Origin: an uncultured Candidatus Saccharibacteria bacterium
GTDB lineage: Bacteria > Patescibacteriota > Minisyncoccia > UBA6257 > Colwellbacteraceae
Assembly (NCBI GenBank): GCA_964609135.1
Contig: CAZSQQ010000001.1
Coordinates: forward strand, 1 to 44,665
Length of the DNA: 44,665 bases
Reading direction: 5' to 3'
A program made the position numbers and the translations under genes. Positions 20,403 through 31,148 of the stretch are shown in pieces. A model generated the notes under the pieces. The model saw nothing but the letters and a program-made list of their open reading frames with translations. It was not told where the DNA came from and ran no database searches. The number at the start of each line of letters is the position of its first letter. Positions within the stretch are counted from its first letter, which is position 1.

Positions 20403-20431
20403 TCTCTAATTCGCGCGAATTGGCGAATAGT
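20403..20431. repeat. Dispersed 29-bp repeat TCTCTAATTCGCGCGAATWGGCGAATAGT, copy 1
   Basis: 28/29 identical to 25205-25233; palindromic core ATTCGCGCGAAT. Confidence 0.8.
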
Positions 20432-25204: not shown

Positions 25205-25233
25205 TCTCTAATTCGCGCGAATAGGCGAATAGT
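25205..25233. repeat. Dispersed 29-bp repeat, copy 2
   Basis: 28/29 identical to 20403-20431; ends 6 nt before the rnhA ATG. Confidence 0.8.
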
Positions 25234-25239
25234 TAAATT

Positions 25240-25662
25240 ATGATTAAATCAGCTCAAGACAAAAAACTAATAATTTATACCGATGGGGGAGCCAGAGGTA
25301 ACCCGGGGCCGGCGGCTATCGGCGTAGTCGTTGGTGAAAAGATGTACGGCGAGCAAATCGGTAGGACTACCAATAATGTGGCCGAGTATAAAGCGGTGAT
25401 TTTTGCTCTGAAAAAAGCTAAGCAGCTCTTAGGGAAGAAGAAAACCAAAGAAATGGAAGTTGAGGTAAGAAGTGATAGTGAGCTTTTATCTCGACAATTA
25501 AATGGCTTATACAAAATCGAGGGAAAAGAACTCCAGCCGCTTTTTATAGAAATCTGGAACTTGAAGCAGGATTTTAAGAAAGTTAATTTTATCCACGTCA
25601 CCAGGGATAAAAACAGGGAAGCGGATAGGTTGGTGAATAGGACGTTGGATACATTGTTTTAA
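25240..25662 (+). CDS. rnhA: Ribonuclease HI
   Basis: YTDGGARGNPGPA, TNNVAEY, SDSEL and NREAD.L catalytic motifs. Confidence 0.93.
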   Translation: MIKSAQDKKLIIYTDGGARGNPGPAAIGVVVGEKMYGEQIGRTTNNVAEYKAVIFALKKAKQLLGKKKTKEMEVEVRSDSELLSRQLNGLYKIEGKELQPLFIEIWNLKQDFKKVNFIHVTRDKNREADRLVNRTLDTLF

Positions 25663-25665
25663 AAA

Positions 25666-25715
25666 TTGACAATTTTTCCCGCCTCGCTATTGTGAAACTA
25701 GCGCCGTTCTTTCAG
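25666..25715 (+). promoter_or_regulatory. sigma70 promoter plus boxA-like element of cassette 3
   Basis: TTGACA (25666-71), 16-nt spacer, TATTGT (25688-93), GTTCTTTCAG (25706-15). Confidence 0.6.
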
Positions 25716-25737
25716 AGGTTTTGGCAAGGTGGGGGAG

Positions 25738-25851
25738 GTGAATCCAATATCGCAATTTTGGCGCTATCTCCAGGTCGTCGGCTGTTTCGTCATCTTCACG
25801 CTCGTGCTCTTCGCCGTGGCGATAGTCTCAGCCTACTGCGCGAGCCGCTGA
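25738..25851 (+). CDS. Small hydrophobic single-TM peptide (37 aa from GTG; cassette 3; not in ORF track)
   Basis: MNPISQFWRYLQVVGCFVIFTLVLFAVAIVSAYCASR*; GC3-rich codons; purine-rich SD region upstream; followed by hairpins. Confidence 0.55.
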   Translation: MNPISQFWRYLQVVGCFVIFTLVLFAVAIVSAYCASR

Positions 25852-25911
25852 AACACCTTGTCATTTCCTCATCCCATCTGGGAGACGGCTTTGGCCGTCT
25901 CATCATCACGC

Positions 25912-25943
25912 GAGGGAGGCTCTGTCCCCACAGAGCCTCCCTC
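25912..25943 (+). terminator. 14-bp hairpin ending cassette 3
   Basis: GAGGGAGGCTCTGT-CCCC-ACAGAGCCTCCCTC. Confidence 0.65.
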
Positions 25944-25983
25944 AACGCATTCCCTTAGAGGGACTTTTAAATTCTGGAAATGC

Positions 25984-26044
25984 TTGACTTTTTAGAAAAA
26001 CTGTGCTAACTTTTAATCAGCAGTAAAAGTCTCGCACCTTGACA
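25984..26044 (+). promoter_or_regulatory. sigma70 promoter plus boxA-like element of cassette 4
   Basis: TTGACT (25984-89), 17-nt spacer, TGn-TAACTT (26007-12); GCACCTTGACA (26034-44); SD AAGGAGGTGA. Confidence 0.55.
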
Positions 26045-26068
26045 TAGCATAGGAAGGAGGTGAGTAGC

Positions 26069-26818
26069 ATGGCTACCACCCGCACCGAGCACACTACACA
26101 CGCTCCCGCCGCGATCGTTTTCCCGTGGCAGTTGCCGCGGCTGGCACTCTTCACTCTTACCATCTTCACGATCGTGGCCATTAGTGTGGTCTCGCTCGTG
26201 GTGGTGGCAGTGCTCCCAGTGTTCCCGAAGAGTTCTGGAGACGCATCTGCAGTCGTCGCCGCACCGACACCGACCGCAACCCCCGTGACCACGGCAATCC
26301 CGACTGCGACGCCGGCTCCGACGGCAGTTCCTACTCCGTCGCCGACGCCCACGCCGAGCCCAACACCAGCACCGAGTCCCACTCCCGAGAACCGACCCGG
26401 ACAGGCAGGCACCTGCCTCGTCCTGGAACAGCAATACTGCGGAACTGGCGACACCGTCCTCGGTTTCCTTGCAGGCTTTAAGCTTCCCGCTGGGACACCG
26501 TTGTTCGCACCGTTTGATGGTTATGTCGCAAGCTCTTCTGTGAAATATTCGAAGAGCGGCGACGGATATCGTCAGATGGTCGTCTACGTATCTCCGGACG
26601 GGGATTACCTGCACAAGACGCTTCTCGTAGCTATGTCTCCAGTCGAGCTTACCGTCTCTTCTGGTCCAGTCAAGAAGGGCCAGTTGGTCGGCAGGACCAC
26701 TGGAGCCATCGTTGCAGAAGCCGGTGACTACAACTTCGTTGCCGTCGCTTCAAAGCAGTTCGGCTCTCCGGACACTGGGTTCGTGGATCGCTTCTCCGCA
26801 GAGCTCCTTCGCAAGTAG
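26069..26818 (+). CDS. Membrane-anchored protein with Pro/Thr linker and degenerate M23-peptidase-like domain (GC-rich cassette 4)
   Basis: TM helix, PTPT repeats, GTPLFAPFDGYV and VKKGQLVG (M23-like fold motifs); no HxxxD/HxH zinc ligands. ATG follows the SD; the track start is 26060. Confidence 0.75.
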   Translation: MATTRTEHTTHAPAAIVFPWQLPRLALFTLTIFTIVAISVVSLVVVAVLPVFPKSSGDASAVVAAPTPTATPVTTAIPTATPAPTAVPTPSPTPTPSPTPAPSPTPENRPGQAGTCLVLEQQYCGTGDTVLGFLAGFKLPAGTPLFAPFDGYVASSSVKYSKSGDGYRQMVVYVSPDGDYLHKTLLVAMSPVELTVSSGPVKKGQLVGRTTGAIVAEAGDYNFVAVASKQFGSPDTGFVDRFSAELLRK

Positions 26819-27436
26819 GGCTAAGCCGAAAGGCGAAGCTTTTTCCTCGCGTAACAATCGCGCGAGGAGGCCCCAGCGCGTTTGCTGGGGCCTCTTCATT
26901 TGTGTTATTATGTGTTACAATCATTCAAAAGTGAATCTTTCTGGGATAAGAAAATATTCAATATTTTTTTTGGCGATTTTTATTTTTGGGGTAATCTTCT
27001 TTTTATTAAGAAATCCAATCAGAAGTGAGATTTCAAATCTTTTTGCTAAAAAGCCCGGCACCTGTTTGGTGCTGGAACAGCAATACTGCGGAACTGGCGA
27101 CACCGTCCTCGGTTTCCTTGCAGGCTTTAAGCTTCCCGCTGGGACACCGTTGTTCGCACCGTTTGATGGTTATGTCGCAAGCTCTTCTGTGAAATATTCG
27201 AAGAGCGGCGACGGATATCGTCAGATGGTCGTCTACGTATCTCCGGACGGGGATTACCTGCACAAGACGCTTCTCGTAGCTATGTCTCCAGTCGAGCTTA
27301 CCGTCTCTTCTGGTCCAGTCAAGAAGGGCCAGTTGGTCGGCAGGACCACTGGAGCCATCGTTGCAGAAGCCGGTGACTACAACTTCGTTGCCGTCGCTTC
27401 AAAGCAGTTCGGCTCTCCGGACACTGGGTTCGTGGA
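26423..27436 (+). repeat. 365-bp perfect direct repeat (26423-26787 = 27072-27436)
   Basis: Compared base by base; offset 649 nt; both copies lie in frame inside genes. Confidence 0.95.
26867..26900 (+). terminator. Terminator hairpin of cassette 4
   Basis: GAGGCCCCAGC-GCGTTT-GCTGGGGCCTC followed by TTCATTT. Confidence 0.7.
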
Positions 27437-27464
27437 AAACTTTTTTAAAATGCTACTTAAGTAA
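26931..27464 (+). CDS. AT-rich paralog of the preceding gene (TM anchor plus the same M23-like domain)
   Basis: GTG 26931 lies 9 nt after TACAAT. TM segment YSIFFLAIFIFGVIFFLL. The track's upstream extension runs through the terminator of the previous gene. Confidence 0.75.
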   Translation: MNLSGIRKYSIFFLAIFIFGVIFFLLRNPIRSEISNLFAKKPGTCLVLEQQYCGTGDTVLGFLAGFKLPAGTPLFAPFDGYVASSSVKYSKSGDGYRQMVVYVSPDGDYLHKTLLVAMSPVELTVSSGPVKKGQLVGRTTGAIVAEAGDYNFVAVASKQFGSPDTGFVENFFKMLLK

Positions 27465-27472
27465 AGTATAAG

Positions 27473-29233
27473 ATGAATTATTTATATAAAATAGTAATTA
27501 CCTTTTTCTTTATATTGGCTACTTTCGGTTTTGTTAATCTTGCTAATGCTGATACTTATACATTGCCTCCTAAGAATATAGGTCAGTGTAATACAACCGA
27601 TACGATCTATAATGCCGGGGGATGTTATTCTAATAAAGATTGCGGTTTTTATTATGATACTGGCAATACTATAAAGCCTGATCTATGGTCAAGGTACGAT
27701 GTTGAAGAAATAATTGAATGGACATTTGAACCCAACCCGCTTTTCGATCCAAGGAGTTGGGAATGTGATACTACCAGTCTATGTATTATCACAACCTCCT
27801 ATTCCTTCATAAGACTTTCCAATATTTACTCTACTGCTGATAAATACAATGGCCCACCTTATGGGAACGATGCATCAAAATTAAATTTTGGCTATTGTGA
27901 CGGCAGTGTCGGCAATCCCTACAAGGTTTGTTGTAATGGCAGTCAGCCGGTTCCTGCTTATCAGGTGAACTTAGACCCGTATTCTCCTCCTGAAGGTGGA
28001 TGTGGGAACAACCAAGTCTATAGCAATGATCCAGCCACTGGTTTGCCGGCCGCCGGACCGGGATTAACTTGCCCTCAACCCACAACTTGTCCGGCTGGAC
28101 AGACAGGTACTCCGCCTAATTGTGTAACTCCACCACCGCCCACAACTCCTCGACCAACCACTGGCTGGTGTTCGCCTTGCCTCGGTGGGTTACAAACCTG
28201 CGTAACTTTTAGTGGTCTTGTACCTCAATTTACTACCACATCCTGTGGCGCCCCTCCACCGCCTCCACTTCCACCACCTCCCGCCTCTCCTGCCTCTCCT
28301 TCCTCCGGCCCTGCTATTTTTAAAGATTACCGGTGTCCCACTTCGTGCCAGGGAGGAGGCACCTACTGGCCAGCGGGAACATGCATCGAAAGAGATGAGA
28401 TAGAACTGCCCAACGGATCAGTAAGATTTGTCTGCAGCCAGACATCTGGCATAGAGGGCTGTTACGACCAAAGTAACAATTACTGTGGACCGGTAACCAT
28501 AACCAGCCGCGCCTGTGGGACCAGCCAGTCTCAAGCTTGCAACTCGACCTGGTTTCAGCCGCTAGGCGGCAATAAATGCGGAAACGAAAGATGGGGATGT
28601 TACTCGTCTTCCTACATTCCGGGTTTTGGTTATGCGGCCATTCTACAGAATTGCTCCGCGTCTAACTTTCCCGATTACTGCCACAGCAGTCCCGGCGACG
28701 ATGATACTTGCGGGCCCTGGACAGGTCCTTCTTGCGGCACTCAAACCAGAACTTGTAAGACCACCAATTGCAGCCCTTGCCAGGCTACCCGATACGAAGC
28801 TTGTAATGCTCCAGGCGTGACTGGTCCCGGTGGCGCTGGTGGAGGTGGCGGTGGACCAGCAACGACTCCACCAGCTCCACCGCCTCCACCTCCGCCAATA
28901 TGCAGCGGCGGTCTCTCTGCCAATCCTCAAAATGTCTTTAACCCAGGCGACAAATCAACTTTGAGCTGGTCATGCTCATCGCCATCGAGCTGTCTAATTG
29001 ATAAGAAAGAGGGAACAGGTTCCTTCACTTTCGTCTCTGATGTTTCGAACTCCGGGACTAAAGAGGTCTTCCCGACAACGGGGACTACTTACAGACTCAC
29101 CTGCACCAATGCCGGAGGTCCCAGTTCTTACCAAGCCACCATTCAAGTGATTAAGATTCAATTCCAGGAAGTAAACCCGACATCACTCTTCAAATCAATG
29201 TTCAACTTCTTCGGGTTGGCCGTTGCTTTCTAA
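27473..29233 (+). CDS. Secreted Cys/Pro/Gly-rich surface protein with C-terminal Ig/PKD-like module
   Basis: Signal peptide; dozens of Cys; poly-Pro linkers; TLSWSC...TTYRLTC module; FQEVNP near the C-terminus. Confidence 0.8.
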   Translation: MNYLYKIVITFFFILATFGFVNLANADTYTLPPKNIGQCNTTDTIYNAGGCYSNKDCGFYYDTGNTIKPDLWSRYDVEEIIEWTFEPNPLFDPRSWECDTTSLCIITTSYSFIRLSNIYSTADKYNGPPYGNDASKLNFGYCDGSVGNPYKVCCNGSQPVPAYQVNLDPYSPPEGGCGNNQVYSNDPATGLPAAGPGLTCPQPTTCPAGQTGTPPNCVTPPPPTTPRPTTGWCSPCLGGLQTCVTFSGLVPQFTTTSCGAPPPPPLPPPPASPASPSSGPAIFKDYRCPTSCQGGGTYWPAGTCIERDEIELPNGSVRFVCSQTSGIEGCYDQSNNYCGPVTITSRACGTSQSQACNSTWFQPLGGNKCGNERWGCYSSSYIPGFGYAAILQNCSASNFPDYCHSSPGDDDTCGPWTGPSCGTQTRTCKTTNCSPCQATRYEACNAPGVTGPGGAGGGGGGPATTPPAPPPPPPPICSGGLSANPQNVFNPGDKSTLSWSCSSPSSCLIDKKEGTGSFTFVSDVSNSGTKEVFPTTGTTYRLTCTNAGGPSSYQATIQVIKIQFQEVNPTSLFKSMFNFFGLAVAF

Positions 29234-29241
29234 ACCAGGGC

Positions 29242-29298
29242 TTGAAAAAGTCTTAACTCTGTGGTATAAAAGCTCTGGTTGGTAATTCAGAATAGTAG
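29242..29298 (+). repeat. Duplicate of the rnpB promoter and 5' end
   Basis: GCTCTGGTTGGTAATTCAGA(A)TAGTAG (29272-29298) matches 30570-30595 with a single indel; both copies are preceded by TTGAAA-17-(-10). Confidence 0.8.
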
Positions 29299-29315
29299 TT
29301 TTTCTGGGTTTTGTT

Positions 29316-29882
29316 ATGACGAAATTTAAATGGGGGTGGAAACCCGCACCGACACTTAAAGAGTTAGTTCCTAATCTAAAAAGAAGCGGAGTGATATTGG
29401 ACCTTGGTTGCGGTTGCGGTGGCAATAGCATTTTTCTTGCCAAGCATAATTTCCAGGTAGTAGCCTTAGACCGGAGAAAAGAAGCCATTAATTGTCTTAA
29501 AGGAAGAATTAAGAATCTTAAAATAAGAAGAAAAATTTCTTCCGGGGTTGTAGATTTGAGTATCTCGAGTTGGCCGAAAAAGAAATATGTTCTAATTATT
29601 GCTTTGAATACTTTTCATTTTCTGCCCCCTAAAAGGGCGGTCTTGTTAATAAATCGGATAAAGAATTCTTTAGCTGATGATGGCGTAATATTCCTTAGAC
29701 TCTTCAGCAACAGGAATGCTCATCGCGGAAAAGGCTATCATCCAACACCAACAGCCTTAAAAAATAAATTCTCTAATTTTCAGATTATCCAATTTAGTCA
29801 TTATAAAGTAAAGGACAATCATCCGCCAATTGGACTACACCAGCATTGGGTCCTTGATTTAATAGCCAAGAAGAGTGATTAA
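29316..29882 (+). CDS. Class I SAM-dependent methyltransferase (TehB-like)
   Basis: ILDLGCGCG.NS.FLA....V.ALD and FHFL motifs; C-terminal H.H.H. Confidence 0.85.
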   Translation: MTKFKWGWKPAPTLKELVPNLKRSGVILDLGCGCGGNSIFLAKHNFQVVALDRRKEAINCLKGRIKNLKIRRKISSGVVDLSISSWPKKKYVLIIALNTFHFLPPKRAVLLINRIKNSLADDGVIFLRLFSNRNAHRGKGYHPTPTALKNKFSNFQIIQFSHYKVKDNHPPIGLHQHWVLDLIAKKSD

Positions 29883-29889
29883 AAGTGGA

Positions 29890-29924
29890 GAAGGTCTCGG
29901 CGGCAGTTTACCGCCGAGACCTTC
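29890..29924. terminator. Bidirectional terminator hairpin
   Basis: GAAGGTCTCGGCGG-CAGTTTA-CCGCCGAGACCTTC, 14-bp stem between convergent genes. Confidence 0.75.
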
Positions 29925-29970
29925 CGCTAAGATGGGATTGATGGGGATCTTATGTCCGCTGGACTGCTTG

Positions 29971-30444
29971 TCAGTTCTTGGGGTCTGGGTTCGGTGCGTC
30001 GCTGCAGTAGTTCTCGCAGGTTCCGCCGTCGCAGTCGGCCGCCGAGCGGACCTTCCACCACTTGGAGTTGATGCCACCGAACATCTTTGGCATCACTTCC
30101 AAGGTGTTGGCGTAGCTGTCGTGCATCACCTCGCGGGTCGGCCGGTGGTGGATGTATCCGCCGATCATGCCGCAGAAGCGGAAGTAGTCCGAGGTGAAAA
30201 GCACGAAAGCGTGCCACATGTCATCCAGATGCTTGCTCGGGGCGAAGCTGCGTGAGCGGTTACTGGCGCAGATCGCTAGGAACTTCTTGACCTCATCGAA
30301 CTGCTCTCGAGCATCTGCCTCAGAGATGTCATGCTCCTTGGCGAAACGCTCGATGAGCAATTCCGGTGGCGCGAAACGCATCACCCCTTCGAGGTCAAAG
30401 GGGAGCACAACGCGAGTACCTTGCTCTAGGACAACAACCGTCAT
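29971..30444 (-). CDS. GRDP-like (glycine-rich domain/DUF1399-type) protein with Cys-rich tail (GC-rich cassette 5)
   Basis: E.KKFL..., PS..LD.MWH.F.L.T..Y..FC....IHH.P pattern; SD AGGAGG. Confidence 0.7.
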   Translation of the reverse strand: MTVVVLEQGTRVVLPFDLEGVMRFAPPELLIERFAKEHDISEADAREQFDEVKKFLAICASNRSRSFAPSKHLDDMWHAFVLFTSDYFRFCGMIGGYIHHRPTREVMHDSYANTLEVMPKMFGGINSKWWKVRSAADCDGGTCENYCSDAPNPDPKN

Positions 30445-30573
30445 GTCGATCTCCTCCTAGACTTCAGAAACCCCACAATCCCTAAGGAACTACCATAAAG
30501 ATAGCAAATAAATGATATAAAGCAATCCTTGGCAATATCTTGAAAATACACTAAAGTTGTGATACAATGGCTC

Positions 30574-31064
30574 TGGTTGGTAATTCAGATAGTAGCTCCA
30601 AATCCCGCTTCTTATACGCCAATTTACGACAGCTCTTTTTATTGAAGCAGGACTGGAGAGGAAAGTCCGGACACCCGCCAATTTTGTCCGCCGCAGACGT
30701 TTACAAAATTGAGCGTCCCGAGTTTGTCGAGGGACATCCTTCGACGCTGCTCAGGATGCACGATTTTGCGACACCTGCGGTGGGCAAAATCGGCATTTGT
30801 AGCGGCTAACGGCCGTCGTCCGAAAGGACAGAGGTGCGAACAGTAACGTCCCGAACCGAAAGGTGAGGGAGAGCCCGATCCCAAGCTAGAAGGCTTAGCT
30901 CCGCTATAGGGATAAGAAAGCGGAGATGAAACGGCTAAATCCTTACTGGGTGCAAGGTCGCGCTCCGACCTCGGTCGGAGAGTACCGCTTGACTCCGAGA
31001 GTAATCGAGGAGCTTAGATAAATTACTATCGAGATACAGAATCCGGCTTACGAATTACCAACCA
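30574..31064 (+). ncRNA. rnpB: RNase P RNA
   Basis: GAGGAAAGTCCGGACAC, GGGTGCAAGG and ACAGAATCCGGCTTAC signatures; P1 pairing TGGTTGGTAATTC/GAATTACCAACCA; promoter TTGAAA-17-TACAAT; terminator 31067-31095. Confidence 0.96.
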
Positions 31065-31148
31065 CTAAAAGAATCATCCTTGCGATGGTTCTTTTGGTTT
31101 TACAATTGGCAGGATGCCGACGGTGTTCAGCATCAGATTTACCCATTT

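Follow-up and report, generated by a model that had tools for sequence, protein, structure and literature searches.

We analyzed a 44,665-nucleotide (nt) stretch of DNA from an uncultured Candidatus Saccharibacteria bacterium, the window, in which two genes lie between two copies of a promoter-like site joined to the 5′ end of rnpB, the gene for the RNA subunit of ribonuclease P (RNase P). The window is part of contig C1 (133.9 kb) of a metagenome-assembled genome of 508 kb in 19 contigs that is 99.4% complete. Reading downstream, the locus comprises the RNase HI gene rnhA, a series of lineage-specific genes, copy 1 of the repeat, a methyltransferase gene, a small gene on the opposite strand, copy 2 of the repeat and rnpB itself (Table 1). 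Sequencing runs that carry matching DNA are groundwater metagenomes, and the contigs compared with the window are the Logan contigs of each run.

Table 1. Features of the rnhA–rnpB region of the window (nt, nucleotides; aa, amino acids; ORF, open reading frame; TM, transmembrane)
Feature	Coordinates	Strand	Remarks
RNase HI gene (rnhA)	25240–25662	+	NCBIfam RNase H/HI matches; conserved upstream neighbor of rnpB in the family
Remaining content of the rnhA–rnpB gap	25663–29240		small TM ORF, GC-rich 252-aa ORF, chimeric ORF with 380-nt duplicate, 586-aa secreted-type protein
Copy 1, promoter-like site	29242–29270	+	−35 TTGAAA 29242–29247, 14 nt, extended −10 TGGTATAAA 29262–29270; putative activity
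Copy 1, core, orphan rnpB 5′ end	29272–29298	+	P1-like strand 29276–29288, extra A 29292, TAGTAG 29293–29298
Methyltransferase, 188 aa, class I S-adenosylmethionine-dependent, TehB-like	29316–29882	+	Pfam TehB/Methyltransf_25 E 3e-11; NCBIfam TehB below cut-off
GC-rich hairpin, 14-bp perfect	29890–29924		between convergent genes; T-run follows on minus strand only
UCP032817-like/GRDP-like protein (PF27765), 157 aa	29971–30444	−	Cys-rich acidic tail, strong Shine–Dalgarno
AT-rich spacer, 36% GC	30445–30539	−	back to back with copy 2; promoter candidates of minus-strand gene by eye
Copy 2, promoter	30540–30568	+	TTGAAA, 17-nt spacing, TG-extended −10 TACAAT; promoter scan 10/12 matches with TG
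rnpB, RNase P RNA class A	30574–31064	+	~491 nt; sole copy in genome
P4 motif of rnpB	~30656–30672	+	conserved strands
Terminator-like hairpin and T-run after rnpB	31071–31101	+	8 bp, loop 5; read from sequence, not called by pattern scan

The direct repeat extends over 29241–29298 (copy 1) and 30539–30595 (copy 2). Its center is a 20-nt core, GCTCTGGTTGGTAATTCAGA, which is identical at 29272–29291 and 30570–30589 and occurs exactly twice in the whole 508-kb genome (a reversed control pattern gives zero occurrences). TAGTAG follows the core in both copies, with one extra A (29292) before it in copy 1, and the resulting 26-nt core thus carries zero substitutions and one indel between the copies. 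The promoter halves match at 19 of 31 positions (12 mismatches); the matching positions are CTTGAAAA, TGTG, TA, AA and three to four positions of a spacer that is at chance level. The TTGAAA-N14-TGnTAnAAn architecture occurs three times genome-wide on both strands, and two of these occurrences are the copies described here. Copy 1 is promoter-like, with predicted activity, and of the type found at rnpB in relatives; its TGTGGTATAAA(A) context is also present at the rnpB promoters of four relatives (loci L005, L010, L013 and L019). The copy 1 core forms the start of the methyltransferase leader. No terminator is found between the stop of the upstream 586-aa gene (29233) and copy 1 (29241; region 29233–29316), and read-through from this gene could therefore also reach the methyltransferase.

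The segment shared by the two copies can be placed on the RNase P RNA fold. P1 is formed by TGGTTGGTAATTC (30574–30586), which pairs at 13 of 13 positions with 31052–31064, and P2 by GATAGTAG (30588–30595), which pairs at eight of eight positions with 31023–31030. Both helices covary among 16 relatives, with the strand pairs GGAGG/CCTCC, GCAGG/CCTGC, AACTT/AAGTT, GACGATTG/TAATCGTC and AACAACAG/TTGTTGTT, and the conserved P4 strands GAGGAAAGTCCGGAC and ACAGAATCCGGCTTA are both found in the window rnpB. Read in this way, the repeat consists of the rnpB promoter, its predicted start site and the P1 and P2 5′ strands, and rnpB is structurally intact and presumably functional beside the insert, with P1, P2 and P4 kept in what is the sole genomic copy. 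The original prediction that the rnpB promoter and 5′ end are duplicated around a 1.3-kb insert is thus confirmed, down to a core present only twice in the genome, and its assignment of the P1 5′ strand to the upstream copy is upheld by the covariation and extends to the P2 5′ strand. The P1 sequence of copy 1 is GGTTGG, a variant specific to the window (GGAGG in relatives). Copy 1 thus carries the P1 variant of this lineage and derives either from the rnpB of this lineage or from a very close relative's.

The window rnpB scores low against RF00010 (E 1e-10, 40.5 bits, below the gathering score of 100), whereas its orthologues in relatives reach 107 to 125 bits, above the Rfam gathering threshold. 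The low score is accounted for by a long P3 and an extra segment of ~121 nt (30677–30799). This lineage-specific segment sits just 3′ of the P4 5′ strand, and it is precisely 30677–30799 that is missing from X3 and X6 contigs of other organisms, which have 24 to 32 different letters in its place.

The arrangement is real and not an assembly artifact. Contigs of run X1 (29099–30057 and 30028–30946) bridge the copy junctions with zero differences from the window, independent contigs span all junctions at even depth, and the 20-nt repeat is shorter than assembly k-mers. The X1 contig over the insert has a depth of 37.5, compared with 41 to 73 elsewhere; this lies within scatter and is not used as evidence, and neither are the stretches left uncovered by runs X5 and X6. 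Beyond the fact that the genome is metagenome-assembled in 19 contigs, nothing further speaks for a chimera, and a chance similarity would have to place a 20-nt exact repeat plus six further nt in matching register behind two promoters of one rare architecture. We regard chance similarity or assembly chimerism as extremely improbable.

To place the repeat in context, we turned to relatives, which are other genera of the same family. RNase HI is encoded directly 5′ of rnpB, at a distance of 56 to 830 nt, in 14 of them, including the closest relative (G011), with a single small membrane ORF in the gap in some; the corresponding gap in the window is 4.9 kb of lineage-specific genes. The compact rnhA–rnpB arrangement is thus ancestral. 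The relatives' fetched rnpB loci contain no second copy of their own rnpB 5′ end, and a motif search across the family returned a single rnpB 5′ motif in each of the 17 other genomes in which the motif is detectable. A second motif match in genome G053 sits inside a protein gene and was dismissed as chance. Insertion at the rnpB 5′ end, as originally proposed, is supported by these data: the region is variable, relatives have the compact arrangement without the bracketed genes, and no relative was found to carry both copies with the same content. As to an empty site, other genera have the compact arrangement and the contig ends of run X3 described below would fit one; the empty-site sequence itself was not seen.

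The bracketed cargo consists of two genes that are unlike each other and unlike the genome around them. The closest homologues of the methyltransferase share 52 to 56% identity, and its start lies a few residues later than theirs. It is found in zero of 52 family genomes and zero of 400 genomes of the order, and in two of 400 genomes of the class at 34 to 35% identity. A metagenome scan with the methyltransferase alignment returned, among the matches listed, only relatives at 24 to 48% identity, and plasmids gave only methyltransferases at ≤27.5% identity. The opposite-strand GRDP-like gene has a strong Shine–Dalgarno sequence of a kind absent from neighboring native genes, and its best matches among species representatives are from Acidobacteriota (46%); relatives are present in two of 52 family genomes, at 40% identity and at another genomic location. 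The hairpin between the two genes is probably the terminator of the minus-strand gene, judging from the position of its T-run. GC content at third codon positions (GC3) is 0.34 for the methyltransferase and 0.78 for the GRDP-like gene, compared with a genome median of 0.52 and a range of 0.29 to 0.71 among 207 long ORFs, so that the latter exceeds every long ORF of the genome. Judged by composition and distribution, the bracketed cargo is foreign, rare and accessory.

Further observations concern these gene families. GRDP-like genes in three loci of the candidate phyla radiation (CPR) lie ~11 GC points above their surroundings. In a Saccharibacteria metagenome-assembled genome (L058, 5001–6004), a GRDP-like gene (PF27765) has downstream of it, in the same orientation, a gene for a class I methyltransferase that is 30% identical to that of the window. 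A general methyltransferase–GRDP association was considered and set aside, with a class I methyltransferase within ≤5 kb in seven of ~80 loci, too near background. A 25-nt likeness of 29807–29831 to the P4 region was likewise rejected as chance; it encodes a motif conserved in the methyltransferase family.

The contrast between a randomized promoter spacer and an intact core argues against an old, neutral duplication in place. Had all 57 nt been duplicated early enough for the spacer to be randomized, the copy 1 core, for which neither a pairing partner nor a role is known, would be expected to have decayed too. Orthologous rnpB loci of relatives have in common a TTGnnn-N14-TGGTATAAA architecture with free spacers and a conserved 5′ end, and the context of copy 1 is the family-typical TGTGGTATAAAA. 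Gene conversion over an island of 26 nt is implausible. Two readings are then left: the leader is under selection, or the two promoters have separate histories and were brought together by a recent event. We favor the second, in view of this pattern at the relatives' loci and of the contigs of runs X5 and X3 described below.

The first of these would be a case of promoter capture, in which the rnpB promoter and leader were duplicated in place long ago and selection has since kept the 26-nt leader; functions under selection could be properties of the initial transcribed sequence, coregulation with rnpB or pairing with the P1 and P2 3′ strands. A rare architecture common to both copies, with three genomic occurrences, is most easily obtained if the promoter was duplicated too, selection on both copies would be expected to leave a randomized spacer beside an intact core, and the methyltransferase ATG begins just 17 nt past the core. 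On the other hand, leaders of this kind have no known function, and that of the methyltransferase does not fold significantly (z −0.5), which gives no support to a regulatory mimic; the extra A would also bulge any P2-like pairing. The absence of a second copy from all relatives gives no sign of age, and the X3 contig ends suggest that the segment is still polymorphic. Finally, the relatives' rnpB promoters have the same architecture, and two rnpB-type promoters thus need not be copies of each other. Promoter capture is unlikely in our assessment.

The population signal comes from run X3, whose contigs end or start exactly at 29291, 29262, 30599 and 30570. In a k = 31 graph simulation, the occupied allele together with an allele lacking 29292–30589 gives exactly the two branch nodes seen in X3, whereas a simulated A-indel, a single-nucleotide polymorphism at 30569 or a circle junction gives other nodes, which are not seen there; at k = 31, the 20-nt repeat alone would be too short to create a branch. 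When modeled in this way, the contig ends are indirect evidence that some X3 cells may be without the segment or may carry other content between the same cores. A contig of run X5, which comes from another study, begins at 30571, at the edge of the core, and is identical to the window; no X5 alignment reaches the promoter. The 105-nt X5 tract identical to the window was considered as a sign of recent exchange and not retained, as it is equally explained by stronger constraint on P1–P4 than on the insert that follows. A G>A difference at 30570 in run X6 affects the first core base and carries no information on copy 1.

A sharp identity block with unrelated flanks and a restored target gene is also what is found at the attL and attR ends of a site-specific mobile element, and the insert could be the 1.3-kb remnant of an element that used the rnpB 5′ end as attB and whose integrase acted in trans or was lost. 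Against such an element, in this 99.4%-complete assembly there is one tyrosine recombinase match (PF00589), on another contig, which is Xer-type and scores far below integron-integrase cut-offs, and there is no serine recombinase (PF00239). As read from sequence, inverted arm-type binding sites in the core do not exceed 4 nt, and a Xer/dif-like site in the core is ruled out by the lack of inverted arms. Among viral contigs, neither the 20-nt core nor either cargo family was found, and no circle-junction nodes were seen in the run contigs. The cargo is itself mosaic, with very low GC3 in one gene and very high GC3 in the other. A classical attachment (att) site with a cognate integrase, a single coherent element and a circle junction are not supported, and we consider a site-specific element improbable.

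The interpretation that we prefer, and to which we give about even credence, is that the repeat is the scar of a recent, integrase-free recombination at the first 20 to 26 transcribed bases of rnpB, which placed cargo at the start of the ribozyme gene and swapped its promoters. The event would have begun with uptake of DNA from a related donor in which the cargo adjoined the rnpB promoter and 5′ end of that donor; accessory genes gather in the rnhA–rnpB gap of this family, which makes such a donor plausible. RecA, ComEC and DprA are encoded in the genome, all over their cut-offs. One end of the incoming DNA would have been joined by homologous recombination within rnpB, and the other by an illegitimate or microhomology-mediated join at CAGA/ATAGTAG, with TAGTAG as possible microhomology; a join at this position would also account for the extra A. 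The same product would result if a circle had recombined within the core by a Campbell-type crossover. Either way, the resident rnpB promoter and the orphan 5′ strands of P1 and P2 would now head the methyltransferase mRNA (copy 1), and an imported rnpB-type promoter with the same 5′ end would now drive rnpB, leaving the ribozyme gene intact (copy 2). What we infer from this arrangement is the direction in which the promoters were swapped, the mechanism, the activity of the promoters and the presence of an insert-free allele in the population.

Several points weigh against such an integrase-free event. None of the donor locus, the empty-site sequence or a junction read was seen. The resident promoter is assigned from its TGTGGTATAAAA context, and the other promoter is taken as imported by that same provisional assignment. 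The X3 signal consists of contig ends, and a different insert between the same cores would, in the model, give the same nodes; in addition, X1 and X3 may be source samples of the assembly, which limits their independence. The relatives compared are all from other genera. Moreover, the opposite GC3 extremes of the two cargo genes call for more than one event or for a mosaic donor. Each cargo gene has a homologue (65% and 56% identity) listed on a 2184-nt contig of the same collection, and these records hint at an older gene pairing that is hard to square with the GC3 gap.

The remainder of the rnhA–rnpB gap (25663–29240) has no homologues in the relatives' rnpB loci, and matches to the 586-aa protein are weak, C-terminal and confined to six of 52 family genomes. 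The gap contains a 380-nt direct duplicate, 99% identical, at 26408–26787 and 27057–27436; the duplicated unit is the GC-rich C-terminal domain of the 252-aa ORF (a weak Peptidase_M23 match), and it recurs in the following ORF behind an AT-rich N-terminal part (GC3 0.31). The arrangement suggests recent gene conversion, or a chimeric gene, inside the variable gap. In locus L019 (G003), from another genus of the family, a small GC-rich gene on the opposite strand, likewise preceded by a strong Shine–Dalgarno sequence, separates RNase HI from the rnpB promoter, and GC-rich, foreign-looking cassettes at this spot are therefore not restricted to the window. Loci L005, L008 and L015 (G023, G010 and G006) have a near-consensus promoter right after the RNase HI stop, followed by a small hydrophobic ORF, and a similar promoter with a 37-codon hydrophobic ORF occupies the same position in the window (25666–25860). 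Separately, a motif of ~29 nt, TCTCTAATTCGCGCGAATAGGCGAATAGT, is present in at least six genomic copies at 93 to 100% identity (window 20403–20431 and 25205–25233; G000 C1:105751, 106256 and 106560; C8:20321) and lies just 5′ of a start codon at least twice (ORF 20475 and rnhA). The motif may represent an operator or a shared regulatory site; the pair at 20403 and 25205 was examined as a second bracketing repeat and ruled out because the motif is multicopy.

tRNA and tmRNA genes are the classic att sites with target duplication, and the locus resembles the islands and prophages found there in several respects. In both, foreign genes lie between direct repeats made from a segment of an essential small-RNA gene, whose integrity is preserved by the replacement end that the incoming DNA brings; relatives from other genera have the compact arrangement, which would fit an uninterrupted site. 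In contrast to those islands, the target here is rnpB, the insert is 1.3 kb, the insert and the genome lack an integrase, arm-type sites are absent and the cargo is compositionally mosaic. With the defining integrase absent, we do not class the case with the tRNA and tmRNA islands. Within the library searched, no paper was found to name rnpB as an attachment site. Since the target is the 5′ end of rnpB, the replacement part must include the promoter; the repeat contains a whole promoter, and there is a population-level hint of an insert-free allele.

A further parallel is homology-facilitated illegitimate recombination in natural transformation, which has been described for Acinetobacter baylyi and Streptococcus pneumoniae. 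The process uses one homologous anchor, here rnpB with its near-invariant P4 region, and short microhomology at the other end, for which TAGTAG after CAGA would be suited; it needs no site-specific recombinase, and RecA, ComEC and DprA are among the products encoded here. It differs in that the mechanism at rnpB is deduced from the scar and that transformation of this organism is putative. Integron cassettes are likewise small, mostly single-gene units of foreign composition next to a promoter. In contrast to these, there is no integron integrase and no attC-like imperfect palindrome at the borders of the insert; the sole inverted repeat bordering the cassette is perfect and resembles a terminator hairpin. 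The cassette gene also has a putative promoter region and a probable terminator of its own.

CPR genomes of ~0.5 Mb have few classical mobile elements, yet show clear foreign gene gain. The scar described here would represent one integrase-free way to gain genes at an essential ribozyme gene without disrupting it, and the segment is probably still polymorphic in the aquifer population. As a conjecture in which we place little confidence, the ends of CPR rnpB genes, here the promoter-proximal 5′ end, may be a regular docking place for small integrase-less modules, with docking that swaps promoters by design: the module would give rnpB an rnpB-type promoter and 5′ end, and the cargo would get the resident housekeeping promoter. 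New cargo would in this way gain a strong promoter at once. If this holds, docking would offer ultra-small genomes a general route to new genes that is independent of recombinases. Should the pattern prove general for rnpB or for other gene ends, it would provide a marker for recent acquisitions and a testable model of integrase-free gene gain by DNA uptake.

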